A stretch of 64,000 nucleotides of DNA from Chitinophaga pinensis. GTDB taxonomy: Bacteria > Bacteroidota > Bacteroidia > Chitinophagales > CAIOSU01. How positions within the stretch are numbered: position 1 is the first letter of the stretch; every line of letters begins with the position of its first letter. The DNA lies in NCBI GenBank assembly GCA_945901065.1, contig CAMDKI010000011.1:16149-80148 (forward strand). The letters are read 5' to 3'. The notes beneath the pieces are model-generated. The model searched no databases. It saw only the letters and a list, made by a program, of their open reading frames with translations, and was not told where the DNA came from. Shown here piece after piece: positions 2,354 through 59,741 of the stretch. A program made the position numbers and the translations under genes.

Positions 2354-3628
2354 ATGGAAATGCAACTAAATCACCCACTTAGCCTTTCTGATACTTTTGC
2401 GAAGCGTTTTAAGCATATACGCGCTCAAACGGAAGCTATTTGTGCGCCTTTGAAAGTGGAGGATTATGTGGCACAGCCCATCGTGGATGTTAGCCCCCCG
2501 AAATGGCATTTAGCCCATACTACGTGGTTTTTCGAGAATTTCATATTGTTGCCGCACTTGCCTGGCTACAAGGTTTTTGATACCGACTTTAGCTATATGT
2601 TCAATAGTTATTACGAGAGTGTGGGTGAGCGTGTATTGCGCGACCACCGTGGCCACATGACCCGCCCTAGTGTTGTTGAGGTGTATGAGTATAGGCGCTA
2701 TGTAGATGTAGCCATGCTGCAGTTTTTTGATAAAAATGATGAATTGGATGCGGCATTAAAATACACATTGGAGATTGGCTTACAACACGAGCAGCAGCAT
2801 CAAGAGCTGTTGGTTACGGATATTAAATACATACTCGGGCACCACCCATTGCATCCCGTGTACAAGGTAATTGAGTTGCCAGAAACCGGAACTGCACTAC
2901 CGCCGCAATGGCACGAAATAGCCGAAGGAATTTATTATATTGGATACGATGGTAGTGGATTTTGTTTTGATAATGAACAAGGTGTGCATCAAGTTTACCT
3001 GCAACAATGTCGCATCATGAACCGCCCCATAACCAATGCAGAGTACTTGCGGTTTATGGAAGATGGAGGTTATGCCAATCACCAATGGTGGTTTGCTGAT
3101 GCCTGGGGATGGCTAAGCGAAATGGGCATAAAAGCCCCACACTATTGGGAGCAACATAACGGCCAATGGTACCAATACCAATTGGATGGCTTAAAACCCA
3201 TTGACCCAAATGCACCCGTAACCCACGTAAGTATGTATGAGGCTGCGGCCTATGCCATGTGGGCCGGCAAGCGCCTACCTACCGAACAGGAATGGGAAGT
3301 AGCTGCCAAAACATTGCAGCCTGGAGGGCCTAGTGAGGGCAACTTCCTAGAGCAAAGTAAATTTCAATCGTTACCTACCCAAGAAAATAGCCAATGGTAT
3401 GGCGATGTTTGGGAATGGACCAACAGCGCCTACCTGCCTTACCCCTATTACCAGCGGCCCGATGGTGCGCTGGGCGAGTACAATGGTAAGTTTATGATTA
3501 ACCAAATGGTATTGCGCGGCGGCTCTTGTTCTACGCCACAAAGCCACATTAGGCCTACTTACCGTAACTTCTTTCAGCCGGATAAAAGGTGGCAGTTTAC
3601 GGGTTTTCGTTTGGCGGAGCACGTTTAG
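2354..3628 (+). CDS. egtB: EgtB-like sulfoxide synthase (DinB-like N-domain plus FGE-sulfatase-like C-domain)
   Basis: 424 aa. The motifs WHLAHTTWFFENF and LQHEQQHQELL fit a DinB-type metal site. The C-terminal motifs RLPTEQEWEVAA, GDVWEWTNS and VLRGGSCSTP fit an FGE-sulfatase fold. No egtD-like methyltransferase is adjacent. Confidence 0.75.
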   Translation: MEMQLNHPLSLSDTFAKRFKHIRAQTEAICAPLKVEDYVAQPIVDVSPPKWHLAHTTWFFENFILLPHLPGYKVFDTDFSYMFNSYYESVGERVLRDHRGHMTRPSVVEVYEYRRYVDVAMLQFFDKNDELDAALKYTLEIGLQHEQQHQELLVTDIKYILGHHPLHPVYKVIELPETGTALPPQWHEIAEGIYYIGYDGSGFCFDNEQGVHQVYLQQCRIMNRPITNAEYLRFMEDGGYANHQWWFADAWGWLSEMGIKAPHYWEQHNGQWYQYQLDGLKPIDPNAPVTHVSMYEAAAYAMWAGKRLPTEQEWEVAAKTLQPGGPSEGNFLEQSKFQSLPTQENSQWYGDVWEWTNSAYLPYPYYQRPDGALGEYNGKFMINQMVLRGGSCSTPQSHIRPTYRNFFQPDKRWQFTGFRLAEHV

Positions 3629-7063: not shown

Positions 7064-8587
7064 TTACTCCATGTTACTTACTACGGTAAAGCTGCGGTTC
7101 CAGCGTATTTTGCCTTCCATCCAGGTTTTGTATTTATCTAACGATAGCCAAATAAACCAAGCCTTACCTACGATGTGGTCTTCGGGTACAAAGCCCCAAA
7201 ACCGCGAATCGAGGGAGTTGATGCGGTTATCGCCCATCATAAAGTAGTAGTTCATTTTAAAGGTATACTCCGTAACGGCCTTTCCGCCCATAGTGAAAGC
7301 ACCATTGCTGCGCACTATATCGGCTTTCTCATAATCGTTAATGGCCATGCCATAGGTTGTCCAACTCTCTTGGTCTAACTGAATGGTCATGCCGGCATAG
7401 GGTATTTGTATAGGGCCATAATTATCCAAGTTCCATCCTTTTGCTTGCGCAAACTCTGGATACAACTGGCCATCGGTTTGGCCAGGCATACCCACCACCC
7501 GGTAAATGGTATCGATAAACGAAATGGCCTGAATTTTGGCAATCAGTTCATTGTTGTTTATCGGCAAACGGTAGCTATCAATGCCGTGTGCTTCAGGATA
7601 AATATCGCAAAGGTTTACATCCAAGTCGGCCAGTTCTTTTAAAAATGGATAGTTTTTGTACAATTGGGTAATATTCAAATTGCACTCATCGCCATTAGCG
7701 CTACCATGTATTAAACGACCCACACTTAACTCTGGATTGGTATAGGTTACAAAAAACTTTCCTTGCAGGTTTTTGGGTACGAATGCCTTTTCGCCATTAA
7801 TACTCAATACGCCTTCGTTTATCTGCAAGGTATCGCCAGCAATGGCCACGCAGCGCTTTATGTAGTTCTGCTTTTTATCAACCGGAAAATCAGCTTGCGT
7901 ATAATAGTTCTCCACCGGCCAGTTAAACACCACCATATCGTTGCGCTCTACACTCTGAAAGCCCGGCAAACGGTAATAAGGCAAGCTTGGTTTCTCTAAA
8001 TAAGACTTACCACCCGTAATAGGCATATCGCGGTGCACCATCGGGAAGGTGAGCGGTGTATTGGGTACCCTTGGGCCATAGTGTATCTTGCTCACAAATA
8101 AGAAATCGCCTACCATCAAGGTGCTTTCCATAGATGAGGTAGGGATGGTATAAGCTTCGAACACAAACGTACGGATGATGGTGGCGGCCACTACCGCAAA
8201 CAACAACGCATCGGCCCACTCCATGCCTGTGCTGCGCTTTTCCATTACTTTGGGTTCGTATTTCAGGGTTTCTTTGAAATTAAGGAACGGCAAATACAAC
8301 GGCCAAAAGAATATACCGGCCGCTTGCTGTAAAAAGCCACGTTTGCCATACATTTTCAATAGCTCCGTTACCATCCAAATAATTAAGATGATATTGAAAT
8401 AAGGCACTAAAATAAACATCAACCACCAAGGCTTGCGGTCCATTATCTGTATCCAGGCATACACGTTCAGCACCGGTATGCGCGATTTTGAAATCGCTAT
8501 ACCTGCTTTCTCAAAAAACTGGCCCATGAGCATGGTTACCGCGCTCATAAACAACAATGGACCGAATATTAGGACTAACCACATCAT
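7064..8587 (-). CDS. lepB: Signal peptidase I with extended N-terminal membrane domain
   Basis: 507 aa. S26 motifs are [18 protein letters not shown] (catalytic Ser) and [25 protein letters not shown]. It lies downstream of dapB on the same strand. Confidence 0.9.
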
Positions 8588-15704: not shown

Positions 15705-15746
15705 AGTTGCGGGTTGCGGGTTGCGAGTTACGGGTTACGAGTTAAT
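15705..15746. repeat. Heptamer array (GGTTGCG dialect), 6 units
   Basis: Reads AGTTGCG GGTTGCG GGTTGCG AGTTACG GGTTACG AGTTAAT and starts 3 nt after the SBP stop codon. Confidence 0.9.
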
Positions 15747-16099: not shown

Positions 16100-16140
16100 A
16101 GCTCCTCCCCATTTTTCAGGGGGAGGTTGGGAGGGGGTAA
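16100..16140. repeat. CCTCC/GGAGG hairpin repeat, copy 4
   Basis: AGCTCCTCCCC-ATTTTTCAG-GGGGAGGTTGGGAGGGGGTAA, between the convergent GNAT and AhpD-like genes. Confidence 0.8.
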
Positions 16141-16239: not shown

Positions 16240-16758
16240 TTACCCTTTCTTAAACGCCCCCAAGTAATCATCCAACTCCACCTGCAGCACATTATTGAAT
16301 AGATTGGTGGCTACCATGATACCTGCAAAGCCAATCAAGTTTACTACAAAAGCTTCGCCATACTTATCCTTAAAAGGCACTATCATTTCGGCGGGCACTT
16401 GGTTGTAGTTGGTGGCAATTTGTTGGCCCAATAATACCAAGGCTTGTTGCTCCTCGGATAGCACCAGTTCATCTGGGTTTTCGCACCACTCCATCAATAT
16501 CTTCCGGAAGAAGGTTGAACAAATCAGGCAATCGGTTTCGTTACTAATGGCATGTGCAAAAAGTATCACCGACCGCTCCCCAATTACTTTAGCTACTTCA
16601 TCTTTCAAAGGATACCAGCTCATGTAGCTGCCCAAGGTGGCTGGGCTGTGCGCCATGGTTCGTTTCATGTTGGTCATGCGGCTGTGGGTGGCCACTTGCT
16701 CGTCCCATAATACTTTGGCGGCGGCTGGTGCCTCATCGTATGATGATTGCGAAATCAT
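16240..16758 (-). CDS. AhpD/carboxymuconolactone decarboxylase-like protein
   Basis: The ATG at 16758 forms an ATGA overlap with the upstream stop (16755). It is all-helical with a CLIC (CxxC) motif in ISNETDCLICSTFF. The ORF-track start at 16806 is probably an over-extension. Confidence 0.6.
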   Translation of the reverse strand: MISQSSYDEAPAAAKVLWDEQVATHSRMTNMKRTMAHSPATLGSYMSWYPLKDEVAKVIGERSVILFAHAISNETDCLICSTFFRKILMEWCENPDELVLSEEQQALVLLGQQIATNYNQVPAEMIVPFKDKYGEAFVVNLIGFAGIMVATNLFNNVLQVELDDYLGAFKKG

Positions 16759-18365
16759 GCTTCCGTTTTTTGGGTTAGGTGTTTGATGGTCTCTAGGTAC
16801 CAGCAAGCATGTACATGGTTCAATGCCCTAGGGTCGACCACGACCGATTTATCTTCAATTTCCTGATAAATGCGCCCCGATAGCCATTGCTGGCGGTTGG
16901 CATCAATCTGGTTTTCGGGTATCAATAATTTCTTGAGTCCTTGCCTTATCGGCTTTGGGGTGATAGCCTTTATCTTGGTTAATAAGTTATCCGTTTCAAA
17001 CAGGCCATCCACCTTGTTCATATTCTGCTCAATGCCAAATGGCCCAAACAAGTAGCCATTCAGAAACTGCTTATATAGCGTCCTGTCTTTGCGGTACTGA
17101 TTTGGTATGTTGTACCATAGGTTTACGTAGCCATCGTCCCACAAGGGCATGCGCCACTGCAAGCCGTAATATTCATACACCCTCACCGCATTCACAATAA
17201 ACCGCGAAAGCCTATTTACGGTTAGCCAATGCTCATACACCGATACAAACTCATCGCGATTGGTGACGGTATAGCCTTCAAGTTCCTTGCCCAGCAATTG
17301 CAACATTGCCGATTTAAACTTAGGATTGCCGGTTCGAGTAAAGTGGGTTTGGTAAATGTAATCCACCAAACCGCTGATGCTAGTGGTGATACTCGCCCAA
17401 GTAATCTCTTTAGGCAAATAACTACCCGCAGGAAAATCGCCACAATAGCCGGGTATAACCACCCCATCTTTAGGTATGGCACCAGAAGCCAATAAAATAC
17501 CTACTGCAAACCAATCCTGCTCGTGGGCTATAGAATTGTATTGTGCGCCATAGTTTCGGTAAGCCTCACCCTTTTCGTGCATGAAGGTTTCTTGCAACTC
17601 GGCATCATACTCCACAAAATGCCAAGGGAAACCCAATTGCTGTGCCACTTGCTTTGATACCGCTACTTCGGGGCTGTCCTTGCGGCCGTATGTGTAACAG
17701 ATTACTTTGGGGTAATTGAGTTTCTTGAGCATGGCGGCAATAAACCTAGAATCGTGACCGCCGCTCAAAGGAATGATAGCAGGCCTCCCTTCCAATGAAT
17801 TGATGAGCCGTTCAAAAACCGCTTTCGATTCTTGCACCAAAGCAGCTACATAATCATTGGTGCCATTAAGCTTAAGGTTATACTGATGGACGTGCTGATA
17901 ATAAGTAATTACGGACAAAGCCTTACCTTCAAAATTTAGCCATTGCCCGGCTTGCAATTGGTTGAGTCCGTTAAATAGGGTGTTGTTTCCGGTTACACTG
18001 TTCAGGGTTCTTAGTTGCTCCGATGCCAGTGCATTTAGGTTGTTAAGGTCGGATGCTTTTTGCAGCCAAACAGCATCATCGCTTATCACCAATCCGGCTT
18101 TGGTTTGGTGGTAAAACAATGGAAATGCCCGTAGCTTATCAACGGCAGCCCAAACACCATTATCAGTCTCTTTGATGATAATAAAATGACCGTTAGAACC
18201 GCCTAACCATTGCCTTGGCTCACCAGCTTGTTGCGTATAGTCAATCAAGGCTTCACCATGCAGGTATTCGTTATCGGGGCCGAACAAATACCCCTTCACA
18301 TGCCATCCATCTCGTTGATGCCACGTAAAACCTTGATTGTGTATTAGTTGCAGGTGAACGCTCAT
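16755..18365 (-). CDS. Asparagine synthetase-family adenylating enzyme lacking the N-terminal Cys nucleophile
   Basis: 536 aa. PP-loop IIPLSGGHDSRF (SGGxDS). The N-terminal domain is GATase-like (AVDKLRAFPLFY), but the protein starts MSVHLQ, not MC. Confidence 0.8.
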   Translation of the reverse strand: MSVHLQLIHNQGFTWHQRDGWHVKGYLFGPDNEYLHGEALIDYTQQAGEPRQWLGGSNGHFIIIKETDNGVWAAVDKLRAFPLFYHQTKAGLVISDDAVWLQKASDLNNLNALASEQLRTLNSVTGNNTLFNGLNQLQAGQWLNFEGKALSVITYYQHVHQYNLKLNGTNDYVAALVQESKAVFERLINSLEGRPAIIPLSGGHDSRFIAAMLKKLNYPKVICYTYGRKDSPEVAVSKQVAQQLGFPWHFVEYDAELQETFMHEKGEAYRNYGAQYNSIAHEQDWFAVGILLASGAIPKDGVVIPGYCGDFPAGSYLPKEITWASITTSISGLVDYIYQTHFTRTGNPKFKSAMLQLLGKELEGYTVTNRDEFVSVYEHWLTVNRLSRFIVNAVRVYEYYGLQWRMPLWDDGYVNLWYNIPNQYRKDRTLYKQFLNGYLFGPFGIEQNMNKVDGLFETDNLLTKIKAITPKPIRQGLKKLLIPENQIDANRQQWLSGRIYQEIEDKSVVVDPRALNHVHACWYLETIKHLTQKTEA

Positions 18366-19505
18366 TTACTTACCCATTTTTTGTTTTAAAGCATATGTTA
18401 CTGCGCCAACGGCAATGGGTCTAGTGTGCGGGTTGCGGTATATCTGCCAAATAGCCTTCCATGCCGATGGCTTGAACAGCTTTTTCAATATACCAGGCGA
18501 ACCTTTCCTAACACCCTCGCTTGAGTCGCTATTTGCCACTTCCCCACCCGAGCGAGTCATCCAGAAAACACGGTGTGCTTCTGCCAACCAATGTTTTTCG
18601 TACTCCGCCCAGTTATTTAAGGCTTCTATTTCATTAGCAAAAGCCTCTTGCTGGCGGGTTTCAATAATGCCTGTTGAAGTATTAATGTTGATGGGCAACC
18701 AATTATAAGAGCCGCCTGCTTGGTCAAACTCAGCAAACAATATAGCCGATTGGCTAATATAACCTCTATTGGCTTGCAGCTTCAAATCGAAAACAAAGTT
18801 GCCCAACGAATAAAACACCTGATTCCCCTTAACCGACTCAACGCCCTGCAATGTGTGCGAGTGATGCGCCACCACCCACGATTGGGCGTTTAAAGCAAGG
18901 CTTCGCAGCCGTTTCCTCCGTTCAGGTGCCGGATAACGGGTGTATTCTTCGCCACCGTGATAGTTAACAATCAATTGCTTGCCTGCCTTTTGAAAGTCCA
19001 TTATTGCCCTAGAAATCTCTTTTTGACTCGTCTCGCAAAGCACACCAACTTGGCTATTACTGGCTATCATCCCTTCATGGTGGGCAATGCCTATCATACC
19101 TCGCGAAATAGCGTTGGCGGCAAGTTCTATGGGTTTTAGGGCTTGCTCCAAGTTTTTACCTGCGCCAAACCACTGGCCACCGTGCTTTTCAATCAAGGCA
19201 ACGGTTTCTTCAAAACCGGCTACACCATGATCGAACAAATGATTGTTGGCCAAATTGAACACCTTGATATTACGCGCGATTAAATAAGGTATGGCCTCGG
19301 GCGGGCTATGCAGTGCAACGCCATTAATCTTTCTAGTGGGTATATTGGTGGCAGGGCCTTCGAGATTTACTACCACAAAATCTTGTTCGCGCAATTGCTG
19401 TAGCAATTCTGGCGCAAATATTTCCTTGCCTTCCAGCAGTTGCTGCCGGAAAATACCAGAGAAATTCACATCGCCAGCAAAGGCTATTTTTAGCTTTTGT
19501 GCCAT
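18366..19505 (-). CDS. CapA/PGA_cap family metallophosphatase-fold protein
   Basis: The motifs FAGDVNF, NLANNHLFDHG, NYHGGEEY and VVAHHSHTLQG are present. The ATG at 19505 (MAQKLKIAFAGD) overlaps the flippase stop by 16 nt, and the stop abuts the next ATG with zero gap. Confidence 0.8.
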   Translation of the reverse strand: MAQKLKIAFAGDVNFSGIFRQQLLEGKEIFAPELLQQLREQDFVVVNLEGPATNIPTRKINGVALHSPPEAIPYLIARNIKVFNLANNHLFDHGVAGFEETVALIEKHGGQWFGAGKNLEQALKPIELAANAISRGMIGIAHHEGMIASNSQVGVLCETSQKEISRAIMDFQKAGKQLIVNYHGGEEYTRYPAPERRKRLRSLALNAQSWVVAHHSHTLQGVESVKGNQVFYSLGNFVFDLKLQANRGYISQSAILFAEFDQAGGSYNWLPININTSTGIIETRQQEAFANEIEALNNWAEYEKHWLAEAHRVFWMTRSGGEVANSDSSEGVRKGSPGILKKLFKPSAWKAIWQIYRNPHTRPIAVGAVTYALKQKMGK

Positions 19506-20779
19506 ACTGCCTCCCAAGCTTTTTGCCAGCCTAACTTATCGGCACCACTAATGTACCAAATATAGCCAAGCATGAACACATTAAACAATACCCCTACTAA
19601 AGCGAAACCAGCTACAGCCAAAACTGGTTCGCCTGCATAACCAAACCATCCTAACACTGCTGTTCGGGCAATAAAAATGGATACATTGTACCATAGCTCA
19701 AAACCCAATCGTGCCTTTATATTGAGCACGTAAGTAAGCGGATTGACGGTAAACAATAGCAAAAACCAAGGGGCCAAATATTGTGCAAATACCCCCGCTT
19801 CCAACCACTTAGGGCCCAGTGTCCAAGCAAATAACTGCGGACCAGCTATACCCAATAACAATACGGGCAAAATGCCCAAAGCAAACAGATTGCGGGTAGT
19901 TTTCACTACCAGTGCCAAAAACGAACTATGATGCTCCAACTCGTGCTCGCGGGCTGCCCGCTGATAAAATACTTGCCCGAACGATTGTGCCACCAGCAAC
20001 ACTGGAGTACCCAACAGCCTATTGGCCATGCTAAACTGCCCCACTATGGCCGAATTGAAAAAGTACTGCAACAGATATACGGGCACTTGCCTAGAGAAGG
20101 TATTCAGCAACGTGCTGGCCGATGAATACAACGGAAAGTGCTTGTATTCAACGGCTACCAAACGCATTTCGGTGCGCTGGAAGAACTGCCCAAAATTGCT
20201 AAAAGATAGTGCCGTTACAGAGAATATTAATGCTAATAACTGCCCCACAACAAAACCGACCAGTAGCCCAATAGCCCCCAAACCAGCATAACCCAAATAT
20301 AAACTAGTAAGCCCTGTGCTAAATGCCTGCACTACTTTTGCTACCGCTATCGTGCGATATTGGTTGTTACGATTGAGGTATACAGTAAGTGGCTGCAATA
20401 TGGCACCCAATAGACAAGATATGGGCAACCAATGCAGCAAAGCCCATATTTTGGACTCGGCAACCCAACCACTCAGCAATTGTTCGGCGGCAAATACACC
20501 CACAAATACAAAAACACTAACCCCAAAACCTATTAGCCAGCATAACCCCAAAAGGCTTGCTGCGCGATTGTTTTCTTTAGGTAGCATTATGGCATTGTCG
20601 TAGCGAGCGTTAGAGAGCTCGGCCAGTATCAGTTGGGTGGCGGCAAATATGGCCATTACCCCAAAATCAACATCAGTATACACCCTAGCCAATAGCAGCG
20701 TTATGCCTAATGTAAAAACCTGTGCCAAGCCCGAGCCGGTCATTAATACTACAGTATTGCGCAAAAAACCAGATGCCAT
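19490..20779 (-). CDS. MOP-superfamily (Wzx-like) polysaccharide/oligosaccharide flippase
   Basis: It is polytopic throughout, with roughly 12 or more hydrophobic helices by eye, and starts at MASGFLRNTVVLMTGSGLAQ (ATG 20779). The ORF-track extension to 20866 is a translation of a heptamer array. Confidence 0.8.
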   Translation of the reverse strand: MASGFLRNTVVLMTGSGLAQVFTLGITLLLARVYTDVDFGVMAIFAATQLILAELSNARYDNAIMLPKENNRAASLLGLCWLIGFGVSVFVFVGVFAAEQLLSGWVAESKIWALLHWLPISCLLGAILQPLTVYLNRNNQYRTIAVAKVVQAFSTGLTSLYLGYAGLGAIGLLVGFVVGQLLALIFSVTALSFSNFGQFFQRTEMRLVAVEYKHFPLYSSASTLLNTFSRQVPVYLLQYFFNSAIVGQFSMANRLLGTPVLLVAQSFGQVFYQRAAREHELEHHSSFLALVVKTTRNLFALGILPVLLLGIAGPQLFAWTLGPKWLEAGVFAQYLAPWFLLLFTVNPLTYVLNIKARLGFELWYNVSIFIARTAVLGWFGYAGEPVLAVAGFALVGVLFNVFMLGYIWYISGADKLGWQKAWEAVWHKS

Positions 20780-20787
20780 TAGCACAA

Positions 20788-20850
20788 AGATGGAATATGA
20801 AATGCGAAATGAGAAATGGAAAAGAAAGAGATGACAAATGAAAAACAAAA
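20788..20850. repeat. Heptamer array (AATGnGA dialect), ~9 units
   Basis: Reads AAGATGG AATATGA AATGCGA AATGAGA AATGGAA AAGAAAG AGATGAC AAATGAA AAACAAA, directly upstream (minus-strand sense) of the flippase ATG at 20779. Confidence 0.8.
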
Positions 20851-20925
20851 GATACCGGAAAATCACTTTGTAACTTGTACAAGGTACATCGCACTTTGTC
20901 CTTACAGCATTAGTTCCTAACTTGG

Positions 20926-21414
20926 ATGTTACAACGCTCCTATATGAAAAGCTATTTCATTTTACTCCTTTTATCTATTGGTTTTATGGCTGCCGCTCAA
21001 AATGAACTTACCGGACCCACCACTCGCCAGCAACTAGAAGCTTTTGATTGGTTTAATGCAGAATATAATACCTACAAACCATCGGGCAAGAGCATAAAAG
21101 CCTTGAAAGAAGTAGATAAAACGGCCGATTACCGCATTGTGGTGGTACTTGGCACTTGGTGCAGCGATAGCAAGCGCGAAGTACCGCGCTTTTATAAAAT
21201 TGTGGATGCCTTGGGCTTCCCGCATGCCAATATACTCATCATATTGGTGGATGAGAACAAAAACGACGCCAACGGCCTTGCCAAGCAGTTTACTATAAAA
21301 TATGTACCTACCTTCGTTTTTATTGACCCCAATGGCAAAGAGTTTGGCCGAATAGTAGAAACCCCAGCAAAAAATCTGGAAGCAGATTGGCTAAAAATTA
21401 TATCGGGCAAATAA
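20926..21414 (+). CDS. Secreted thioredoxin-fold protein
   Basis: 162 aa. It has a signal peptide (MKSYFILLLLSIGFMAAAQ, alternative ATG at 20944) and VVLGTWCSDSKREVP, a WCxxS thioredoxin-like motif. Confidence 0.7.
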   Translation: MLQRSYMKSYFILLLLSIGFMAAAQNELTGPTTRQQLEAFDWFNAEYNTYKPSGKSIKALKEVDKTADYRIVVVLGTWCSDSKREVPRFYKIVDALGFPHANILIILVDENKNDANGLAKQFTIKYVPTFVFIDPNGKEFGRIVETPAKNLEADWLKIISGK

Positions 21415-25774: not shown

Positions 25775-26821
25775 TTACAAAATCAACATTGCATCGCCAT
25801 AGGTAAAGAAGCGGTAATTTTCCTTAATGGCTTCCTCATAAGCTTTCATTATTAGATCGTAACCACCAAATGAAGCGTTCATGATCAACAAGCTTGACTT
25901 AGGTAAGTGAAAGTTTGAAATCATGCAATTGGCAATACTAAACTCGTGTGGTGGGTGAATAAACAAGTTCGTCCAACCTTCCATGGGTTTAAGCAAGTGC
26001 TGTGCCGATACTGCCGACTCCATAGATCGCATACTAGTGGTGCCTACTGCACAAATTTTATGCTTACCTTCTTTACCTTTATTTACAATATCGCAGTTCT
26101 TTTGATTGATAAAAAAGTACTCGGCATCCATTTTATGCTTGCTCAAATCTTCCACATCAATGGTACGGAAAGTACCCAGACCAACGTGCAACGTAAGTTC
26201 AGCAAAGTTTACACCCTTAATCTCTAGGCGCTTCATCAACTCCTTACTAAAGTGCATTCCAGCAGTTGGGGCAGCCACAGCGCCTTCGTTGCTTGCAAAT
26301 ACGGTTTGGTAGCGGTCTTTATCTAAATCTTCTGGTTTGCGTTTAATGGCTTTTGGCAGTGGCGTTTCGCCAAGACTGTATAGCAATGCCTTAAACTCTT
26401 CATAACTACCATCGTGCAGAAAACGAATCGTACGGCCCCGTGAGGTGGTATTGTCAACAACTTCCGCTACCAAATCATCTTCGCCAAAGTAAAGTTTGTT
26501 GCCTACCCGTATTTTACGGGCAGGGTCAACCAATACGTCCCAAAGTTTATTCTCAGCATTCAATTCACGAAGCAAGAACACTTCAATTTTGGCTCCAGTT
26601 TTTTCCTTTTTGCCATACATACGCGCCGGAAACACTTTCGTGTTGTTCAACACCATTACATCGCCATCATCAAAGTAACCCAAAACGTCGCGAAACATCT
26701 TGTGTTCAATAGTGCCTGTAGCACGATTGACTACCATCAAGCGGCTTTGGTCACGTTCATCATTAGGGTAAGAAGCAATTAGGTTGGGAGGTAATTCAAA
26801 GTTAAACTGGGATAACTTCAT
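25775..26821 (-). CDS. queA: S-adenosylmethionine:tRNA ribosyltransferase-isomerase
   Basis: 348 aa. [19 protein letters not shown]...RDQSRLMV and [12 protein letters not shown] are QueA hallmarks. Confidence 0.9.
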
Positions 26822-29380: not shown

Positions 29381-31276
29381 ATGCACAACCTGAAGGGTAT
29401 ACTAGAGCAATACTGGCACTACAAAGAGTTCCGCCCGCTGCAGGAGGATATCATCCAATCAGTTATAGATGGGCATGACACATTGGCCATATTGCCAACC
29501 GGTGGTGGCAAATCGCTGTGCTACCAAGTTCCGGCAATGGCCTTGCCGGGCATTTGCATAGTGGTTACGCCCCTTATTGCCCTAATGAAGGACCAGATAG
29601 CCAACTTAAAAAAAAGGGGTATAAAAGCGCTTGCGGTGCATGCCGGCATGACTAGGGAAGAAATTGACCACACTTTTGACAATGCCGTGTATGGCAATTT
29701 CAAATTTTTATATCTTTCTCCAGAACGTTTATCGAGCGAAATACTATTGGCCCGCATTGCCAAAATGAAAGTGAATATACTGGCCATTGACGAGGCACAC
29801 TGCATAAGCCAATGGGGCTATGATTTTAGGCCAGCATACCTCAATATTGCCAACATAAAGCCATTAATACCCAATGTGCCCATTATTGCCCTTACTGCTA
29901 CTGCCACACCCAAGGTAAAGGAAGATATACAACTCAGATTGGAGTTTGAAAACCAAAAGGTATTTCAGGCCAGTTTTGCCCGACCAAACATATCGTTTGT
30001 AGTGCGCCGAACCGACGACAAAATGGGTAAAGTAATGCAAGCGCTAAAAAGCGTGCCTGGTTGCGCCATAATATACGTGCGCAGCAGGCGCAAAACGCAG
30101 GAGGTGGCCGATTTGTTGGGCAAAAAAGGCATTAAAAGCAGCTTTTACCATGCAGGCCTAAGCCATGAGTTGCGTAGCCGCCGACAAGAAGAGTGGATAC
30201 AAAACAAGGTTAGGGTAATGGTGTGCACCAATGCCTTTGGTATGGGCATAGATAAACCCGATGTAAGAACGGTAATTCATATTGATTTGCCCGAAAACGT
30301 TGAATCATATTACCAAGAGGCCGGCCGTGCAGGCAGAGATGGAAAGCACTCATTTGCGCTATTGCTATACAACCAAATAAACGAAGACGAGATAAATTAT
30401 AGGTTGGAAAACAATTTCCCTTCGCCTGAAGAAATAGTGAATGTATATAATGCATTAGGCAACTATTTGCAACTGGCAGTGGGTGCTGGCGAAGGCGAAA
30501 GTTTTTTGATTGATACTACCCAATTCATCAAAAACTTTAATCTAGACCCACCCAAAACATTTGGTGCACTTAAAATATTGGAGCAACATGGGCTGTTAAC
30601 CCTCTCTGAAGCAGTGTACATGCCAAGCCGATTGAAGTTTGTGACCGATAAAGAGGAGTTGTATAAGTTTCAGATAGCAAACCGAAAGTTCGACCCGTTT
30701 ATAAAACTGCTACTGCGCTCTTACCCAGGCTTATTTGAAGAATACACCACTTTTAAAGAAAGTGAGTTGTCTCAAAAAGCGGGGTTGAGCTTAAAAGATA
30801 TCGAGAACTACTTGAGTTTCCTGAAAAAAGGAGGTTTGATTGACTATTTGCCCCAAACCGAACAGCCACAGGTAACCTACCTAAAAGCTCGCGAAAACCC
30901 CAAATACCTGAAAATTGACAAGCGATTTGTATTAGAGCGCAAAACGGTATTTGAAGAACAACTAAAAGCCATATTGGGCTATGCCTTAAACCAACAGCAG
31001 TGCCGAAGCCAATACATGCTGACCTATTTTGGCGAAATAGTTTCGGAGCCGTGTGGACACTGCGATATATGCAAAGAAGGGCCCAAAAACACCGATAACA
31101 GCGAGGCCATTATTTCCGCCTTGCACAATGCGCTGCAAAACGGCCCATTAACCAGCACCAATGTGGTGCAACTTTTGGCCGATTATAACCCCGACAGCGT
31201 ATTGATGGCCATAAGGCATTTGATTGAGCTTGAGCAAATTTCGCTTACTGACGATAACCAGTTAACTTGGCTGTAG
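29381..31276 (+). CDS. recQ: ATP-dependent DNA helicase RecQ
   Basis: Motifs: FRPLQ, TGGGKS, AIDEAHCISQWGYDFRP, and a Zn-finger-like CGHCDIC. The ORF-track start at 29327 lies inside the upstream terminator hairpin, so the ATG at 29381 (MHNLKGILEQYW) is preferred. Confidence 0.9.
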   Translation: MHNLKGILEQYWHYKEFRPLQEDIIQSVIDGHDTLAILPTGGGKSLCYQVPAMALPGICIVVTPLIALMKDQIANLKKRGIKALAVHAGMTREEIDHTFDNAVYGNFKFLYLSPERLSSEILLARIAKMKVNILAIDEAHCISQWGYDFRPAYLNIANIKPLIPNVPIIALTATATPKVKEDIQLRLEFENQKVFQASFARPNISFVVRRTDDKMGKVMQALKSVPGCAIIYVRSRRKTQEVADLLGKKGIKSSFYHAGLSHELRSRRQEEWIQNKVRVMVCTNAFGMGIDKPDVRTVIHIDLPENVESYYQEAGRAGRDGKHSFALLLYNQINEDEINYRLENNFPSPEEIVNVYNALGNYLQLAVGAGEGESFLIDTTQFIKNFNLDPPKTFGALKILEQHGLLTLSEAVYMPSRLKFVTDKEELYKFQIANRKFDPFIKLLLRSYPGLFEEYTTFKESELSQKAGLSLKDIENYLSFLKKGGLIDYLPQTEQPQVTYLKARENPKYLKIDKRFVLERKTVFEEQLKAILGYALNQQQCRSQYMLTYFGEIVSEPCGHCDICKEGPKNTDNSEAIISALHNALQNGPLTSTNVVQLLADYNPDSVLMAIRHLIELEQISLTDDNQLTWL

Positions 31277-32364
31277 TGAAACACCTCATAGCCACCGTAA
31301 CCAACGATCTCACTTTCGACCGCCGCATGCAGCGCATTTGCCGAACGCTGGCCGCCAATGGCTTTGCGGTAACGTTGGTTGGCCGCGAGTTGCCAAACTC
31401 CAAGCCTTTGGACATTGAGCCATTCCGGCAGCATAGACTGAGGTGTTGGTTCAACAAGGGCAAGCTGTTTTACCTTGAGTTCAACATCAGATTATGGTGG
31501 TATTTGCTTTGGCAAAAGGCAGATATGGTTTGCGCCATTGACCTAGATACCATTGTGCCCTGTTTTGTAGTTGGCAAATGGAAAGGCTGGAAACGCATAT
31601 ACGATGCCCACGAATACTTCAGCGAAGTGCCAGAGGTGGTGCATCGGCCAATGGTAAAGAAAGTTTGGGAATGGGTAGGCAAAATATTTATACCCAAAGC
31701 AAACCTAGCCTATACCGTAGGTCCTGCGCTGGCCAAAATATTTACGGAACGATACCACATCTCTTTTCACAGCATTCGTAATGTGCCCGATGAAGCAACT
31801 AAAGCCCCTATCGCAACCGAAACAGGCTACCTGTTGTATCAAGGTGCTTTGAATAAAGGTCGTGGTTTGGAGACGCTGCTTACCGCAATGCAACACATCA
31901 ACCTAAAGCTTAAAATTGCTGGCGAAGGCGATTTGTCTAACGAGTTAAGAGAGATGGCAAAATCGCTTGGAGTGGCGGATAAAGTCGAGTTTTTGGGATT
32001 TGTAAAACCAGCCGACCTTCCTGAACTTACCGCAGGTGCTTGGCTTGGGCTTAACTTACTTGAGAACATGGGGTTGAGCTATTACTACTCTTTGGCGAAT
32101 AAATGCTTTGACTACATTCAAGCTGAAGTACCGGCGTTGCACATGGATTTCCCTGAATACCGAAGTTTGGTCGAAAAATATCCGGTAGCTATTTTACTAA
32201 TGGAACTCTCCCCCGAAGCAATTGTTAATGCTGTAAATACATTACAGCTTGACGAGCCAAGGTACAATGCCTTAGTAAGCGAGTGCCATCAAGTTAAAAA
32301 GAACTTTACTTGGCAATTAGAAGCGCAGAAATTGTTAACATTGTATCGTGACATCAGAAGTTAA
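31276..32364 (+). CDS. Glycosyltransferase (GT4/GT1-like)
   Basis: About 362 aa with a GT-B-like C-terminal half (KIAGEGDL...LGFV...SLANKCFDYIQAEVP). The GTG at 31276 overlaps the recQ stop TAG by 1 nt; a TTG at 31267 is the alternative start. Confidence 0.7.
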   Translation: MKHLIATVTNDLTFDRRMQRICRTLAANGFAVTLVGRELPNSKPLDIEPFRQHRLRCWFNKGKLFYLEFNIRLWWYLLWQKADMVCAIDLDTIVPCFVVGKWKGWKRIYDAHEYFSEVPEVVHRPMVKKVWEWVGKIFIPKANLAYTVGPALAKIFTERYHISFHSIRNVPDEATKAPIATETGYLLYQGALNKGRGLETLLTAMQHINLKLKIAGEGDLSNELREMAKSLGVADKVEFLGFVKPADLPELTAGAWLGLNLLENMGLSYYYSLANKCFDYIQAEVPALHMDFPEYRSLVEKYPVAILLMELSPEAIVNAVNTLQLDEPRYNALVSECHQVKKNFTWQLEAQKLLTLYRDIRS

Positions 32365-33490
32365 GCATATTCACATAGTATCGTTCAACGTACCTTATCC
32401 GCCAAACTATGGAGGGGTTATTGATGTGTTTTACAAGATAAAAGCACTTCACGACCTCGGCGTTAAGGTACACCTGCATACGTTTCACTATGGACGGGAA
32501 GAGGCCGAAAAACTGAAAGAACTCTGCGAGAAGGTGTATTATTACCCTCGTCAAAAATTTTACCAAGCCATTTATAGCAGAGTGCCCTATATTGTAGGTT
32601 CAAGACAATCAGATAGCTTGCTTTCAACCTTGATTGTCGACGATTACCCAATCCTTTTCGAAGGGCTGCACACCTGCTTCTATTTAAGCCATCCTTCTAT
32701 TCGCAACCGCTTTAAAATTGTGCGCATGCACAATATTGAGTGGGATTATTACAATAGCTTAGGTAAAGCGGAGCGCAATTTCTTTCGCAAGTTTTACTTT
32801 TATGCTGAGTCGAAAAAGCTAAAGGAGTACGAGGAAGTGTTGCGCGATGCTAACTTGATTGTAGGCATATCAACAAGCGATACAGAATACTTAGGCGAGC
32901 GTTTTAAAAATGTAGCCCACCTCCCAGCCTTCCATCACAATACAGCAGTAGGCAGTAAAGTTGGGCATGGCGATTATGCCCTATACCATGGCAACCTAAG
33001 TGTGCAAGAAAACAACCAAGCAGCTATATACCTTACGCGTAAAATATTCGACAATATTGGGCATCGGTTAAAAATAGCTGGCAGCAAGCCATCGAGTATG
33101 CTACAGCAGGAAGTGAAAACAAGACCTAATTTCGAGCTATTTTCCAGCCCAGATGACACTACTATGGCTTCGCTTATTGGCAATGCGCATATCAATGTTT
33201 TGCCAACTTTTCAAGCAACTGGTGTAAAGCTGAAGCTAATAAATGCGCTGTTCAACGGGCGTTTTTGTGTGGTGAACAAACCGATGATTGAAAACACTGG
33301 GTTAGAAAGCCTTTGCATTGTTTGCGACTCGGCAGATGAAATGAAAGCCGCCATCAAAAACCTGTTCGACCAAGAGTTTACGCAAACGGAGTTAGACAAA
33401 AGAATAGCAGTGCTTGAGGCTAACTACTCAAATGCTGCTAATGCCAGGCATCTAATGCAATTAGTTTGGCCCGCAATTTCGGTAGCATAA
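32348..33490 (+). CDS. Glycosyltransferase (GT-B fold, group 1-like)
   Basis: 380 aa. The GTG start overlaps the previous gene by 17 nt. The N-terminus HIVSFNVPYPPNYGGVIDVF is typical of Bacteroidota GT1-like enzymes. Confidence 0.65.
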   Translation: MTSEVKHIHIVSFNVPYPPNYGGVIDVFYKIKALHDLGVKVHLHTFHYGREEAEKLKELCEKVYYYPRQKFYQAIYSRVPYIVGSRQSDSLLSTLIVDDYPILFEGLHTCFYLSHPSIRNRFKIVRMHNIEWDYYNSLGKAERNFFRKFYFYAESKKLKEYEEVLRDANLIVGISTSDTEYLGERFKNVAHLPAFHHNTAVGSKVGHGDYALYHGNLSVQENNQAAIYLTRKIFDNIGHRLKIAGSKPSSMLQQEVKTRPNFELFSSPDDTTMASLIGNAHINVLPTFQATGVKLKLINALFNGRFCVVNKPMIENTGLESLCIVCDSADEMKAAIKNLFDQEFTQTELDKRIAVLEANYSNAANARHLMQLVWPAISVA

Positions 33491-39632: not shown

Positions 39633-42600
39633 ATGAACAAACATATACTCACCATACTATTAACGCTTTCGTGCTTGAGTACCATAGCACAAAACGTTAA
39701 TTACCAGATATATACCACCCGGTACTATACCGGCAGGGGCAATTCGGATTTTTGGACAGACGATGACCCAAGGTGGGTAGTGTTGTTTTATGACAACACC
39801 GACGGTTATGTATCCGGACAAGGCGTGATACGCTCTATTGACAATGGCCTAGATGGTGCCGCTTGGGACGACCCTACCGACTTTTTATGTCGCACCGAGA
39901 ATAACACAGCAGCCACTTCTCTAAGGGTAAGGCTTGAAGCTTGGGAAGACGATGCGTGCGGGGGCTCAGATACCTACAACACAGGGTGCGCAAACAATGA
40001 TGAGGCCTATTGCAATATACTAAGTGGTAACATCAATTTTAGGTCGGATGCTATTTGTAACTGGAACACCTACAACATCTATTGCAACGGCAATTGGCAA
40101 GTAGATTATCGGGTAAGGTGGGAATGGGCCAATGCCCCTGCTATAACCAGCCAGCCCTCTCCTACCGACAGAAACTTGTGTATCGGCAATAACACCACGC
40201 TCACCGTAGTTGGCGATGCATCGGCAAGGTTTTACAAATGGCAGGTAAACACTAATACCGGCCTACCTCAAAGCCAATGCGCAACCAGTGGCTGGGCCGA
40301 TATTAGCGGTGCTACCAGCAGCAGCTACACCCCACCCCAAACAGCAGGAGCTAGACAATACCGGGTGCTAATAACCAGCAACTGTACTGCAGACTTTACC
40401 TCAAAAACAACTACTTCTAACTGCGTAAGGGTAAACTATTTTCCATACTCCCCCCCTATTATCAGCGCCGCTTGCGGAAACAGCATCTTTATTGGGTCTA
40501 CCCAAAGCTTTGCAGCTACTTTGCCCCCGGCGGTTGGCGCCATAGGCAATGGTTCATACGTGTGGACGGTAAGCCCAACTACTGGTGTAACTATTGCAAC
40601 TGCTACCAGTTCATCAACCAACATTACTTTTGCCAGTGCGGGCAGTTTTACCGTAACCCTAACTACCGATGATAGCGGAGGCCCTTGCAATACCACCAGC
40701 TCAAGCTGCACGGTAAACGTGAGTGCTCCCGATTGCGACTTTGTTTATGTAAATAGCTCCACCTCAAACACGTTAGTAGGCTCCTCTAACTCGCCAGTAA
40801 CACTTGCAGCAGGCATAGTGCTCGCTAGCGGCTCAGGTCGGAAGCACATTCGTATGGCCAGTGGCACTTATAATATAGCCACTATACTAGATATACCCGC
40901 CGACGTAATTATTGAAGGTGGCTACGTACAAACTGGCAATAACTGGACCAAAAGCAGCGCTGCTGTTACGAATATCAACTTTACCGGTGAGGAAACCACT
41001 AGCGGAGTAAGCCACCGAATGGGTTTCAGATCTAACGCATCGAATGGATGGACACTGCAAGACCTTACCATTAGCACAGCTTCCACAACATTAACAGGAA
41101 ACGACCCATCTGGGCGAGGTAAATCAAACTATGCTATTTGGATAAATAATTCTACTGGTACAAATATTGTACGCTGTGTTATTACTAGTGGTAATGCAAC
41201 AAATGGTGCCGCTGGAACAGCTGGTGGTGCTACAGGTGGCAACGGTTCCGCGGGAAATAATGGATCGCAAGGTACATGTGATGATAACATTTCAGGTGCC
41301 GCTGGCGGTGCCGCTCGCACAGGCCCAGGCTCTGGGACTAGAAAAGGTGGCGATGGTGGAGCTGGCGGCCGTGGTGGAAACTATGGCAATAACGCAGGGT
41401 TAGTTGGCTCATTAGGTACAAATGGTGGCGGTGGTGCAGCAAGAGACCCATCAGCAGGTACCGCTGGTGGCGGTGGCAACCCTGGAGGAACAGGAGGTAG
41501 TGCATCCGCATCGATTTCTACCTCACAAGCAAGTAATGGAATTGCAGGGACTCCAAGCTATACTGCGGGGTCAAGACCAACAAACTATTCTGCATCCACT
41601 TATTTCAACCCTGGCACACAAGCTGCAAATGGTGGTAATGGAACTGGCGGTGGCGGTGGCGCTGGCGGCGGCGGCGGCGGCGGACAAGGCTGTACGTTTT
41701 GTAACGATGGAAACGGAAATGGTGCTGGTGGCGGCGGTGCTGGTGGCGAGGGCGGCCAAGGCGGTGATGGAGGATTTGGCGGTGGCGGAAGCTTTACGGT
41801 GTACGTAACTGGAACGGCTCCAACATTTTCTACTACTAATTTAACTTTTGGAAGCGCTGGAGCTGGTGGCAATGGCCAAGGTGGTGGTGGTGGTGGAACT
41901 GGCGGTGACGGTGGAACTGGAGGAAGCACTTGTACTGGTGAAGTGGGACGAGGTGGTAATGGAAGTAAAGGTGGCGCTGGTGGTGCTGGAGGCCGTGGCC
42001 AAGATGGTGCAAATGGTTTAACTGGAGCTTATTTTTTAAATGGCTCAGTGCAAAACAATCCATCAACAACGGTAGCCAACCCAACCAATGCACTCATAGT
42101 TAACTATGATAATACCAAAGGCTGTACCAACTCGGTAATTAACTTAACCAAAGCAAATGGCAATTGGAGCAGTTATGGCACCGGCGGCGATGAAGTATTT
42201 GATATTACCAGCGCCCTCTCAAGCCAGAATGTTACGGCTACCAATATATCTGTTTACTATTCAACTGGCTCAACTGGCTGGAAGGATGTATCAACTACTA
42301 CCGATACCCGTGCCCGGTTACTATTAATCTCAACTGATAGAACCCCGCCGGTAATTAACGGAATCACCTCGCCTATTTGCGCCGATGGTAGTTTAAGCCT
42401 TACTGTTACTGCAAATAGCCCATCGAGTGTGGTGGCCTATGAGTGGACCATACAAGCACAATCGGTGACTGGATTGAGTACCCCAACACCTATTCTTACT
42501 TCGAGCAGCGCTACCCCAACCTTTGCTTTCCCTAATGCTGGCTCATCCAACATTACATATCAAGTAAAGCTCAGGGTGCAAGACCAATGCTGTGGCTGGT

Positions 42601-58613: not shown

Positions 58614-59741
58614 ATGGAGACAACCCTAACCAAAGATAAATTACTATTTACGCCTGGCCCGCTAACCACCAGCTTGACCGTGAAGCAAGCCATGCTTCGC
58701 GACTTGGGCTCTCGCGATATTGAGTTTATCAATACCGTGAAACAAGTGCGCAATGCCTTGTTAGTGATGGGCGAGGTAAGCCAAGCCCAAGGCTATGAAG
58801 CCGTGTTGATGCAGGGCTCTGGCACTTTTGGTGTGGAGTCGGTTATATCTTCGGCACTGCCTAAGGTGGGTGGTCATTTGCTGGTAATTATCAATGGCGC
58901 ATACGGCGACCGTATTGCCAAAATGGCGGACGTGCACGGTATTACCAAAACCGTGTTGAAATATGCCGAAGATGAGTATCCTTCTTTGGAAGATATTGAG
59001 AACACTTTGCAACAAAACCCAAGCATTACCCATGCCGTAGTGGTGCATTGCGAAACTACCAGTGGCATTTTCAACCCTATAAAAGCTATTGGCGAAGTGG
59101 TGAAAAAGCATGGCAAAACCTATATAGTGGATGCCATGAGTAGCTTTGGTGCAGTGCCTACGAATATAGCCGCTAATCAAATCGACTTTCTGGTATCTTC
59201 TTCAAACAAATGTATTGAAGGTGTGCCGGGCTTTAGCTTCTCTATTATACAAAAGGATGCGCTGAACGCCTGCAAAGGTAATGCCCGCAGCCTAAGCTTG
59301 GACCTATATGCCCAATGGGAGGGTTTGGAGCAAAATGGCCAGTTCCGTTTTACGCCGCCTACACACACCATTTTGGCCTTTTGGCAAGCGGTGCAAGAGC
59401 ATACTGCCGAAGGTGGTGTAATTGGCCGCAGTGCGCGATATCAGAAAAACTATAACTTACTAGTGGCTGGCATGCGCGATTTGGGCTTTAAAGAATACCT
59501 GTCGCCTGAAAAGCAAGGCTACATCATTAGCTCATTCTTGTACCCTGAGGATTCGAACTTCGATTTCAAGAAATTCTATGAGCTATTGAACAGTATGGAT
59601 TTCGTTATCTACCCCGGTAAGTTGAGCCAAGTAGATTGTTTCCGTATTGGCAACATTGGCCACATTACCGAGGTTGATATCCGTGGTTTGTTGGGAGCAA
59701 TTAAGGATGTGTTGTTGGAAATGGGTGTAACTTTAAAATAA
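58614..59741 (+). CDS. phnW: 2-aminoethylphosphonate--pyruvate transaminase
   Basis: 375 aa, class V aminotransferase layout (LFTPGPLTTS...SSSNKCIEGVPG with the PLP Lys). It is adjacent to a phosphonatase-like hydrolase. Confidence 0.8.
   Translation: METTLTKDKLLFTPGPLTTSLTVKQAMLRDLGSRDIEFINTVKQVRNALLVMGEVSQAQGYEAVLMQGSGTFGVESVISSALPKVGGHLLVIINGAYGDRIAKMADVHGITKTVLKYAEDEYPSLEDIENTLQQNPSITHAVVVHCETTSGIFNPIKAIGEVVKKHGKTYIVDAMSSFGAVPTNIAANQIDFLVSSSNKCIEGVPGFSFSIIQKDALNACKGNARSLSLDLYAQWEGLEQNGQFRFTPPTHTILAFWQAVQEHTAEGGVIGRSARYQKNYNLLVAGMRDLGFKEYLSPEKQGYIISSFLYPEDSNFDFKKFYELLNSMDFVIYPGKLSQVDCFRIGNIGHITEVDIRGLLGAIKDVLLEMGVTLK

Follow-up and report, generated by a model that had tools for sequence, protein, structure and literature searches.

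A four-gene flippase operon of Chitinophaga pinensis and its distant kinship with the PorS/WbpS pair of Porphyromonas gingivalis

What could be made or modified by an operon that joins a flippase gene to genes for a CapA-family protein and an asparagine synthetase-like enzyme? We addressed this question for four minus-strand genes in a 64,000-nucleotide stretch of Chitinophaga pinensis (assembly GCA_945901065.1, contig CAMDKI010000011.1, positions 16,149 to 80,148), referred to here as the window. In the order of transcription they encode a flippase, a protein of the PGA_cap family (that of CapA), an asparagine synthetase-like (AsnB-like) enzyme and a protein with an AhpD-type fold. An earlier note, made from the sequence alone, had described these genes as coupled at their boundaries, and every overlap that it gave is exact when compared with the list of open reading frames (ORFs) and the sequence. 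Its observation that the unit has no glycosyltransferase (GT), Wzy, CapB or CapC also holds.

Our answer is that the operon is probably a cassette of the PorS/WbpS type that tailors and exports a lipid-linked glycan, the backbone of which would be made elsewhere in the genome. The family link to porS and PGN_1234 of Porphyromonas gingivalis favours one suggestion of the earlier note, which had named uronamide formation, namely that a polymer from elsewhere is amidated and exported. The novelty that it implied for the combination fared less well: the full set was found only in two close relatives, L001 and L012 (72-94% identity), and the pair of a Wzx and an AsnB-like protein lacking Cys2 is the arrangement of porS and PGN_1234, which belong to a characterised pathway (PMC7468200). 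The novelty of the combination therefore fails on both counts. Already known is the core of Wzx plus AsnB-like enzyme; newly seen is the coupling of a PGA_cap protein to a flippase and an amide synthetase, which is undescribed in the literature searched, where the combination of PGA_cap, asparagine synthase and flippase yielded nothing relevant.

The flippase and AsnB-like genes and their P. gingivalis counterparts

The families named in the earlier note were borne out for three of the four proteins when profile hidden Markov models (HMMs) were run, with Polysacc_synt_3, PGA_cap and Asn_synthase all above their cutoffs; the CMD profile gave no match, and that assignment stands on fold only. 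The window flippase scores 71 bits against Polysacc_synt_3 (cutoff 23, 1.3e-19, Pfam) and is 23% identical to P. gingivalis PorS over 349 aa (E 2e-19); a crude scan of its hydropathy gives about 10 hydrophobic segments. From these sequence features we assign it to the polytopic membrane proteins of the Wzx/MOP family, and no MurJ-type family is among its Pfam or NCBIfam matches. For PorS itself Wzx activity is reported, and for PGN_1233 homology to WbaP (PMC3684754).

The AsnB-like protein matches Asn_synthase (36.8 bits, cutoff 21, 4.8e-9, Pfam), carries the PP-loop motif SGGHDS at residues 201-206 and starts with MSVHLQ, so that the earlier description of a PP-loop enzyme with no cysteine after Met1 was right. 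Cys2 is likewise absent from all 24 aligned family members (the window protein and 23 others) and from PGN_1234. Against the model of the canonical glutamine-hydrolysing AsnB (TIGR01536) the window protein reaches 47 bits, the cutoff being 267, and against TIGR03108 (eps_aminotran_1) it reaches 27 bits, the cutoff being 817.

In P. gingivalis, PGN_1234 is an asnB-like gene directly downstream of porR (wbpE) and porS (wzx) (Veith et al. 2020, PMC7468200). Mass spectrometry of the deletion mutant showed a linking-sugar fragment of 199 Da, the acid, in place of 198 Da, the amide; the linking sugar of the anionic lipopolysaccharide (A-LPS) is 2-N-seryl-3-N-acetylglucuronamide, and the gene was named wbpS (PMC7468200). 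This sugar, the product of the Wbp/Vim pathway, anchors type IX secretion system (T9SS) cargo, and its amidation is non-essential in P. gingivalis (PMC7468200). The protein is only ~17% identical to WbpS of Pseudomonas aeruginosa and to WbqG (PMC7468200, Table S3).

When a Parabacteroides homologue served as the query of a protein search, no P. gingivalis entry was among the 120 matches listed, and PGN_1234 was recovered by way of the primer table in the supplement of PMC7468200, in which the first 24 bases of its coding sequence are ATGAAAATAGTCTCAGACTTCACT (MKIVSDFT, without Cys2). A scan of metagenome contigs for ATGAAAATAGTCTCAGACTTCACT led to contig L092, where five of the six published primers match exactly and the gene order is porR/DegT (384 aa), porS/Wzx (435 aa) and AsnB-like (542 aa), with a convergent Bac_transf gene downstream. 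The AsnB-like protein has a Glu at position 71, preceded by WAVVFQRA, and ends with a Leu at position 542, as in the published E71-L542 deletion. The primer matches and these two positions identify the L092 protein as PGN_1234.

Between the window AsnB-like protein and PGN_1234, identity is 24% across residues 25-524 (E 7e-34). PGN_1234 obtains 268 bits from the family HMM, with positions 22-530 of 535 covered, compared with 47 bits for the best solved asparagine synthetase, and in a rough neighbour-joining (NJ) tree PGN_1234 nests inside the AsnB-like family. The window protein is thus a full-length homologue of the tested member. It is encoded downstream of the Wzx gene in one operon, with the PGA_cap gene between them, and on alignment evidence the pair of Wzx and AsnB-like protein is a distant member of the PorS/WbpS kind.

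The two systems share a Bacteroidota host and a Wzx gene followed downstream by a PP-loop AsnB-like gene of ~540 aa without the cysteine, which in P. gingivalis overlaps the Wzx gene. They also share signs that the amide step is dispensable tailoring, since a relative of the window locus, L009, has no AsnB-like gene. There (a Bacteroidota genome assembled from a metagenome, GCA_027483645.1; 5727-7869) the Wzx orthologue (52% identity) and the AhpD-like gene (68% identity) overlap each other, with no trace of a PGA_cap or AsnB-like gene and with the same GNAT gene downstream. This layout indicates that the AhpD-like gene travels with the Wzx gene of the lineage and that PGA_cap and AsnB behave as an optional insert, which fits the non-essential WbpS of P. 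gingivalis. The two systems differ in that the window proteins are only 23-24% identical to their counterparts, that the window has a PGA_cap gene inside the pair and an AhpD-like gene after it, and that no porR/wbpE or wbaP gene is adjacent; the annotated ORFs of the window, which leave out some dozen shorter ones, gave no match to wbpA/B/D/E, vimA/E/F or wbaP.

More distant comparisons were also considered. WbpS of P. aeruginosa O6 and WbqG of Escherichia coli O121 resemble the window protein in belonging to the AsnB superfamily and to O-antigen loci, with a predicted conversion of uronic acid to uronamide, but the model that describes them (TIGR03108; 628 positions) covers a protein about 90 aa longer and with an N-terminal cysteine. 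The AsnB of the Tannerella forsythia O-glycosylation locus (Tanf_01265, 605 aa), which is uncharacterised (PMC6120980), was dropped as closest analogue: it is about 70 aa longer and lies apart from the wzx gene.

Gene contexts of the AsnB-like family

The family to which the window enzyme belongs is large. Two protein searches returned 183 and 819 matches, species-representative genomes hold at least 493, and the members, of 500-580 aa, come from Bacteroidota, Bacillota, Proteobacteria, Cyanobacteria, Chloroflexota and other phyla. ORFs were called in 86 AsnB-like loci and then clustered. In 38 of the 86 the gene directly upstream of the AsnB-like gene is Wzx-like, in 56 a Wzx-like gene is among the three genes upstream, and many of the remaining loci are truncated contigs. 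Because the greedy ORF caller misread some loci (in L008 a spurious 799-aa ORF masked real genes), the co-occurrence counts are lower bounds.

Four types of context were seen. Outside Bacteroidota, classical polysaccharide loci with glycosyltransferases and Wzy occur in Planococcus, Halomonas, Selenomonas, Rivularia, Evansella and Ruminiclostridium; these contain a UDP-sugar dehydrogenase, a GFO_IDH oxidoreductase, a hexapeptide acetyltransferase and a DegT aminotransferase, the enzyme classes of WbpA/B/D/E, and in addition, in many cases, a FemAB-like GNAT together with a DUF7033 protein. The second type consists of Bacteroidales mini-cassettes with the order Wzx-(methyltransferase)-GT4-AsnB, the third of a bare Wzx-AsnB pair in a conserved housekeeping neighbourhood of Chitinophagales and Saprospirales, and the fourth, to which the window belongs, of Wzx-PGA_cap-AsnB. 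Overall, 25 loci have at least one gene of the WbpA/B/D/E classes and 13 have two or more; a FemAB-like GNAT or a DUF7033 gene was present in 16 loci and both in nine. By domain description only, the neighbours of the FemAB-like and DUF7033 kinds that occur in other phyla are similar to the VimA and VimE steps. When the DUF7033 proteins were checked for identity with VimE (CE4), their Pfam match was DUF7033 alone.

The Bacteroidales type was observed as a stand-alone cassette, Wzx-(Methyltransf_24)-GT4-AsnB-like, in ten loci (L022, L029, L031, L048, L050, L051, L061, L068, L072 and L089), and it looks like a self-contained unit that adds one methylated uronamide sugar. Upstream of it, on the opposite strand, are BaxI_1, a protein of ~490 aa that is unannotated, and GNAT genes. 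The bare pair, with a Wzx of 400 aa and an AsnB of 497 aa, was observed in L025, L026, L032, L033, L038, L046, L047, L052, L060, L065, L066 and L069. Its neighbours include LEA_2-like lipoproteins, a weak DUF983 match and, just downstream, an uncharacterised 276-aa lipoprotein, and conserved genes that, by sequence, resemble aroQ, xerD, LemA and TPM-domain proteins. The conservation of this neighbourhood suggests a core envelope function in Chitinophagales and Saprospirales.

These contexts give the result its wider meaning. A family annotated as 'asparagine synthase-related' can be tied to its one tested member, WbpS of P. gingivalis, and so receives a concrete annotation, and the link predicts uronamide-bearing glycans in many Bacteroidota and in other phyla. 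If the connection to the anchoring of T9SS cargo were true outside Porphyromonas, it would bear on how surface proteins are attached in environmental Bacteroidota.

The PGA_cap enzyme and the competing explanations

The window PGA_cap protein scores 150 bits against its Pfam profile (cutoff 27, 9.3e-44), and an alignment of 42 sequences shows D12, E49, N88-H89-x-x-D92, H183, E187, H215 and H217 to be invariant. Its profile match and conserved metal and catalytic residues place it, as a predicted enzyme, in the PGA_cap/CapA family. No hydrophobic N-terminus was seen in the hydropathy scan, and since it has neither a signal peptide nor a membrane anchor a cytoplasmic location is expected. PgsA is reported to be membrane-anchored, and in this respect the window protein, which has no hydrophobic N-terminal segment, differs from it.

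The set of flippase, PGA_cap and AsnB-like genes, with PGA_cap in the middle, was found in only eight of the 86 loci, spread over two phyla: the window relatives L001 and L012, three other Bacteroidota metagenome-assembled genomes (MAGs; L003, L006 and L013), an unclassified MAG (L016) and two cultured bacteria, Polaribacter sp. NJDZ03 and Evansella vedderi (Bacillota). In Evansella the trio sits within a full Wbp-type locus. Across these loci the identities of the three proteins fall in parallel. The PGA_cap subfamily is small, with 141 of 17269 PGA_cap-like matches (representative clusters) at E ≤ 1e-30. Two natural Wzx-PGA_cap fusions exist, P0448 and P0462 (775 and 778 aa), one of them followed directly by an AsnB-like gene, and the window flippase is 28% identical to the N-terminal half of P0448 (E 6e-39). 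These fusions, together with the gene overlap in the window, indicate that flippase and PGA_cap work as one unit at the cytoplasmic face. The coupling is a testable lead on the function of the CapA family, with cultured carriers at hand in Polaribacter sp. NJDZ03 and Evansella vedderi DSM 9768.

Among solved structures the nearest is MslH, a Ca-dependent peptide epimerase that acts on the C-terminal Trp of a lasso peptide, both by sequence (8gq9, E 2e-9) and by fold (Foldseek E 3e-18, TM-score 0.66 as against 0.46 for 5'-nucleotidases). The two proteins share the PGA_cap family and a calcineurin-like fold, and MslH residues Asp11, Glu44, Asn87, His88, Asp91, His259 and His295 are conserved in the window protein, as are the positions of the catalytic dyad; MslH His261 aligns to a Gly. 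With MslH and CapA it has in common the conserved Asp, Glu, Asn-His-x-x-Asp and His and a partner enzyme that forms amides with ATP. The likeness has limits, however, since identity to MslH in the structural alignment is 16%, the score against the MslH model NF038314 is 50.8 bits (cutoff 700), no lasso or CapB/CapC genes were found near the window gene, and its partner, unlike those of MslH and CapA/PgsA, is a Wzx flippase, in some cases fused to it. The PGA_cap protein has relatives in fusion with a Mur ligase (P0505, 785 aa) and with a sugar-transfer ATP-grasp enzyme, ATPgrasp_ST (P0495, 823 aa), and at L096 399-5912 the gene order is ATPgrasp_ST, PGA_cap, transglutaminase-core, ATPgrasp_ST. 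From these fusions and neighbours it follows that PGA_cap recurs beside ATP-dependent carboxylate-amine ligases of three superfamilies, which echoes CapB-CapA and suggests a general partnership of CapA-like proteins with amide ligases.

In the reading that we favour, a PorS/WbpS-type tailoring-and-export cassette, the AsnB-like enzyme would adenylate the C-6 carboxylate of a uronic acid residue and convert it to the amide, as the family link to PGN_1234 implies. The substrate would most likely be a 2,3-diacetamido uronic acid of the Wbp pathway, encountered as a nucleotide sugar or as an undecaprenyl-diphosphate-linked unit, and the nitrogen donor would be ammonia or another amine because the enzyme has no glutaminase domain or partner. 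The Wzx-like protein, by its homology to PorS, would flip the finished lipid-linked unit to the periplasmic face, on a glycan backbone presumably encoded elsewhere in the genome. PGA_cap may add an optional further tailoring step around the same carboxyl group at the cytoplasmic face, as one unit with the flippase; our preferred guess, a speculative one, is MslH-like metal-dependent epimerisation next to the carboxyl group, with a phosphatase as the alternative. The AhpD-fold CxxC protein would be a lineage-specific passenger or helper.

Several points weigh against this assignment. Identity to PGN_1234 and PorS is only 23-24%, so that same-substrate orthology with P. gingivalis is not established. 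The annotated window ORFs include no Wbp, Vim, WbaP or glycosyltransferase gene next to the cassette. The AsnB-like family has no glutaminase nucleophile and no evident partner glutaminase, and the nitrogen donor, free ammonia or another amine, is conjectural even for P. gingivalis. The role given to PGA_cap is speculative. Moreover, the AsnB-like proteins linked to PGA_cap are polyphyletic in the rough NJ tree, which means that PGA_cap may be an interchangeable accessory with different roles, and the Wzx of L009 evidently works with neither PGA_cap nor AsnB.

A wider form of the epimerase guess, which we consider doubtful, makes the window protein a metal-dependent epimerase like MslH, which would take away the proton beside the carboxyl group, at C-5 of the uronate or uronamide or in an amino acid attached by AsnB. 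It would yield an L-configured or a D-aminoacyl uronamide before flipping, and CapA/PgsA proteins would be stereochemical editors beside ligases of the Mur/PgsB, ATP-grasp and AsnB types. If true, it would address a question that has long stood open, the function of CapA. To our knowledge epimerase activity has so far been shown only for MslH, and for decades it has been unclear what CapA/PgsA does biochemically. Close to this idea is an explanation, also unlikely in our view, that concerns only the PGA_cap-containing cassettes: the AsnB-like enzyme would join the uronate to an amino acid or to a phosphorylated amino alcohol, and PGA_cap would epimerise the attached residue or, as a calcineurin-fold phosphatase, remove the phosphate. 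MslH acts on a local structure of this kind, an N-acyl amino acid with a free alpha-carboxylate, and the retained dyad positions, the absence of the glutaminase cysteine from the AsnB-like family, the PGA_cap relatives beside other carboxylate-amine ligases and the frequency of FemAB-like, aminoacyl-transferase-type genes in AsnB-like loci all speak for an N-substituted uronamide, as does the proposal of the MslH authors that CapA is the epimerase of poly-gamma-glutamate (PMC8179263). Yet the only tested family member, PGN_1234, gives a primary amide, as its 1-Da shift shows, the PGA_cap-linked AsnB-like proteins do not form the one clade that would hint at a changed substrate, and the chemistry of the PGA_cap subfamily is so far predicted only.

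Other explanations move the product away from lipid-linked glycans. Were the substrate a peptidoglycan precursor, the AsnB-type enzyme would amidate a carboxylate of lipid II, as AsnB/LtsA does for meso-diaminopimelate, the MOP protein would flip it and PGA_cap would edit the stem. The MOP superfamily match of the flippase agrees with this, as do the housekeeping neighbourhoods without glycosyltransferases in Chitinophagales and in the window, and the fusions of PGA_cap relatives to the Mur ligase already described and, in P0497 (944 aa, two PGA_cap copies), to a D-Ala-D-Ala carboxypeptidase. We nevertheless regard it as improbable, since the flippase matches Polysacc_synt_3 and PorS and no MurJ-type family, the pair stands inside O-antigen or exopolysaccharide-type loci with Wbp genes, glycosyltransferases and Wzy in many phyla, the tested member modifies a sugar linked to lipopolysaccharide, and the known peptidoglycan amidotransferases keep the glutaminase cysteine. 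Very improbable is a lasso-like ribosomal-peptide or poly-gamma-glutamate-like system, in which the AsnB-like protein would be the cyclase or ligase and PGA_cap an MslH/CapA-like enzyme. The PGA_cap family name and weak NCBIfam matches (lasso cyclase 22 bits, macrolactam cyclase 22 bits, MslH 51 bits) point that way, but the curated cutoffs (525, 300 and 700 bits) are far higher than these scores, and the constant partner is a Wzx flippase, often in a polysaccharide locus. The annotated neighbours match no lasso-protease (B protein) or CapB/CapC-type family, small precursor-peptide ORFs not being specifically searched, and for a CapBCA/PgsBCA system no CapB/CapC-type match was found in the annotated 64-kb window ORFs or the called genes of related loci; we rejected the reading on the cutoffs and the missing partner genes. 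To an anti-phage defence or other mobile accessory module we give next to no credence. The distribution is patchy and, between conserved flanks, PGA_cap and AsnB are absent from L009 in the manner of an insert, but none of the four proteins has a PADLOC match, which led us to reject a defence system, the composition is not anomalous (GC 0.46 as against 0.40-0.51 across the window), and the neighbours are housekeeping genes in conserved synteny with L001.

Operon layout, the AhpD-like gene and neighbouring genes

The features of the operon and its flanks are collected in Table 1.

Table 1. Features of the operon and its flanking DNA in window coordinates
Feature	Position	Strand	Evidence	Boundaries
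Flippase (Wzx/MOP-family, PorS-like; 429 aa), predicted	19490..20779	minus	Polysacc_synt_3, hydropathy, PorS homology	ATG at 20779; stop codon ends at 19490; length equal to that of the L001 orthologue
PGA_cap enzyme (cytoplasmic, CapA/MslH-like, calcineurin-fold; 379 aa), predicted	18366..19505	minus	Pfam profile, fold	ATG at 19505, 16-nt overlap with flippase gene; TAA at 18368-18366
AsnB-like PP-loop amide synthetase, Cys-less, PGN_1234/WbpS(Pg) family (536 aa), predicted	16755..18365	minus	Asn_synthase, family HMM	ATG at 18365 abuts the PGA_cap TAA with no gap
AhpD/CMD-fold CxxC protein (172 aa), by model	16240..16758	minus	AlphaFold2 (AF2) model, Foldseek	ATGA overlap with AsnB-like gene at 16758-16755; ends at 16240
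Upstream intergenic region, pyrimidine-rich on the coding strand	20780..20870	minus	Tandem Repeats Finder (TRF) repeats	
G+C-rich 7-bp hairpin between the convergent AhpD-like and GNAT genes	16104..16126	both strands	sequence, folding	

The fourth protein is AhpD-like by its modelled fold, not by profile HMM: it has no Pfam or NCBIfam match, CMD included, even at E up to 5, and its AF2 model (pLDDT 96.6) matches the AhpD/CMD structures 6k40, 3lvy, 6e8l and 2prr with TM-scores of 0.74-0.80 in Foldseek. His69 and Cys77-x-x-Cys80 are invariant, so that it shares with the AhpD/CMD thiol proteins the all-helical fold and a CxxC with an upstream His; it differs from them in the missing CMD profile match, in having no AhpC partner seen near the gene and in its coupling to a flippase operon, which occurs in the window lineage only. 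At least 1932 homologues exist, named 'alkylhydroperoxidase family enzyme' by JGI, and they are mostly free-standing, as in L010 and L011. The AhpD-like gene is a lineage-specific add-on, a passenger or helper of the Wzx operon, outside the conserved module.

Both flanking features of the earlier note exist, neither of them strong. The downstream CCTCC hairpin is CCTCCCC-N9-GGGGAGG and folds on both strands, so that it is a possible bidirectional terminator, yet its folding energy is unremarkable (z only -1.3 and -1.4). The heptamer array upstream of the flippase gene is a period-7 repeat at 20790-20822 of 5.2 copies with 79% matches and a TRF score of 32, and a 22-nt repeat (20809-20853) overlaps it. 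This intergenic region is presumed to be a promoter region shared with a divergent thioredoxin-like gene. No stable fold appeared in the folding scan of the region and no sigma-70-type match was found, with a scan tool that does not cover Bacteroidota promoters, and the counts of the promoter and terminator scans were not above the shuffled expectation. A cleaner, better defined heptamer array, GTTGCGG/GTTACGG (5.6 copies, 87% matches), lies at 15706-15744 between an SBP_bac_5 and a GNAT gene.

The genes around the operon are housekeeping genes (FtsK, ParAB, DapB, LepB, MacAB, QueA and RecQ). The nearest glycosyltransferase is a GT4 gene at 31267-32364, ~10 kb off in another transcription unit behind MacAB, QueA and RecQ, and the gene after it (32348-33490) has a weak glycosyltransferase-family match. 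The QueA gene (25775-26821, minus), for queuosine synthesis, has counterparts close to the cassette in L001 and in a distant MAG of the Bacteroidia, L003 (9720-10964), which is probably residual synteny. Adjoining the flippase gene is the divergent thioredoxin-fold gene (Thioredoxin_9, 20926-21414, plus), and in P. gingivalis L092 a gene with DUF4369 and Thioredoxin_8/AhpC-TSA domains lies upstream of porR (7421-8557, minus). Together with the AhpD-like CxxC protein, these may mark a recurring thiol-redox neighbourhood, or be a coincidence.

Farther away, a 1457-aa PKD-domain protein (39633-44006, plus) coincides with the only stretch of raised G+C in the window (0.50-0.51 as against ~0.43), and no T9SS C-terminal-domain model matches it at E ≤ 1e-4. 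A PhnW gene (2-aminoethylphosphonate-pyruvate transaminase; 58614-59741, plus; 504 bits, cutoff 296), ~40 kb from the operon, implies phosphonate metabolism in the source organism. Finally, a protein encoded at 2354-3628 (plus) combines DinB_2 and FGE-sulfatase domains, which is the architecture of sulfoxide synthases of the EgtB/OvoA type.

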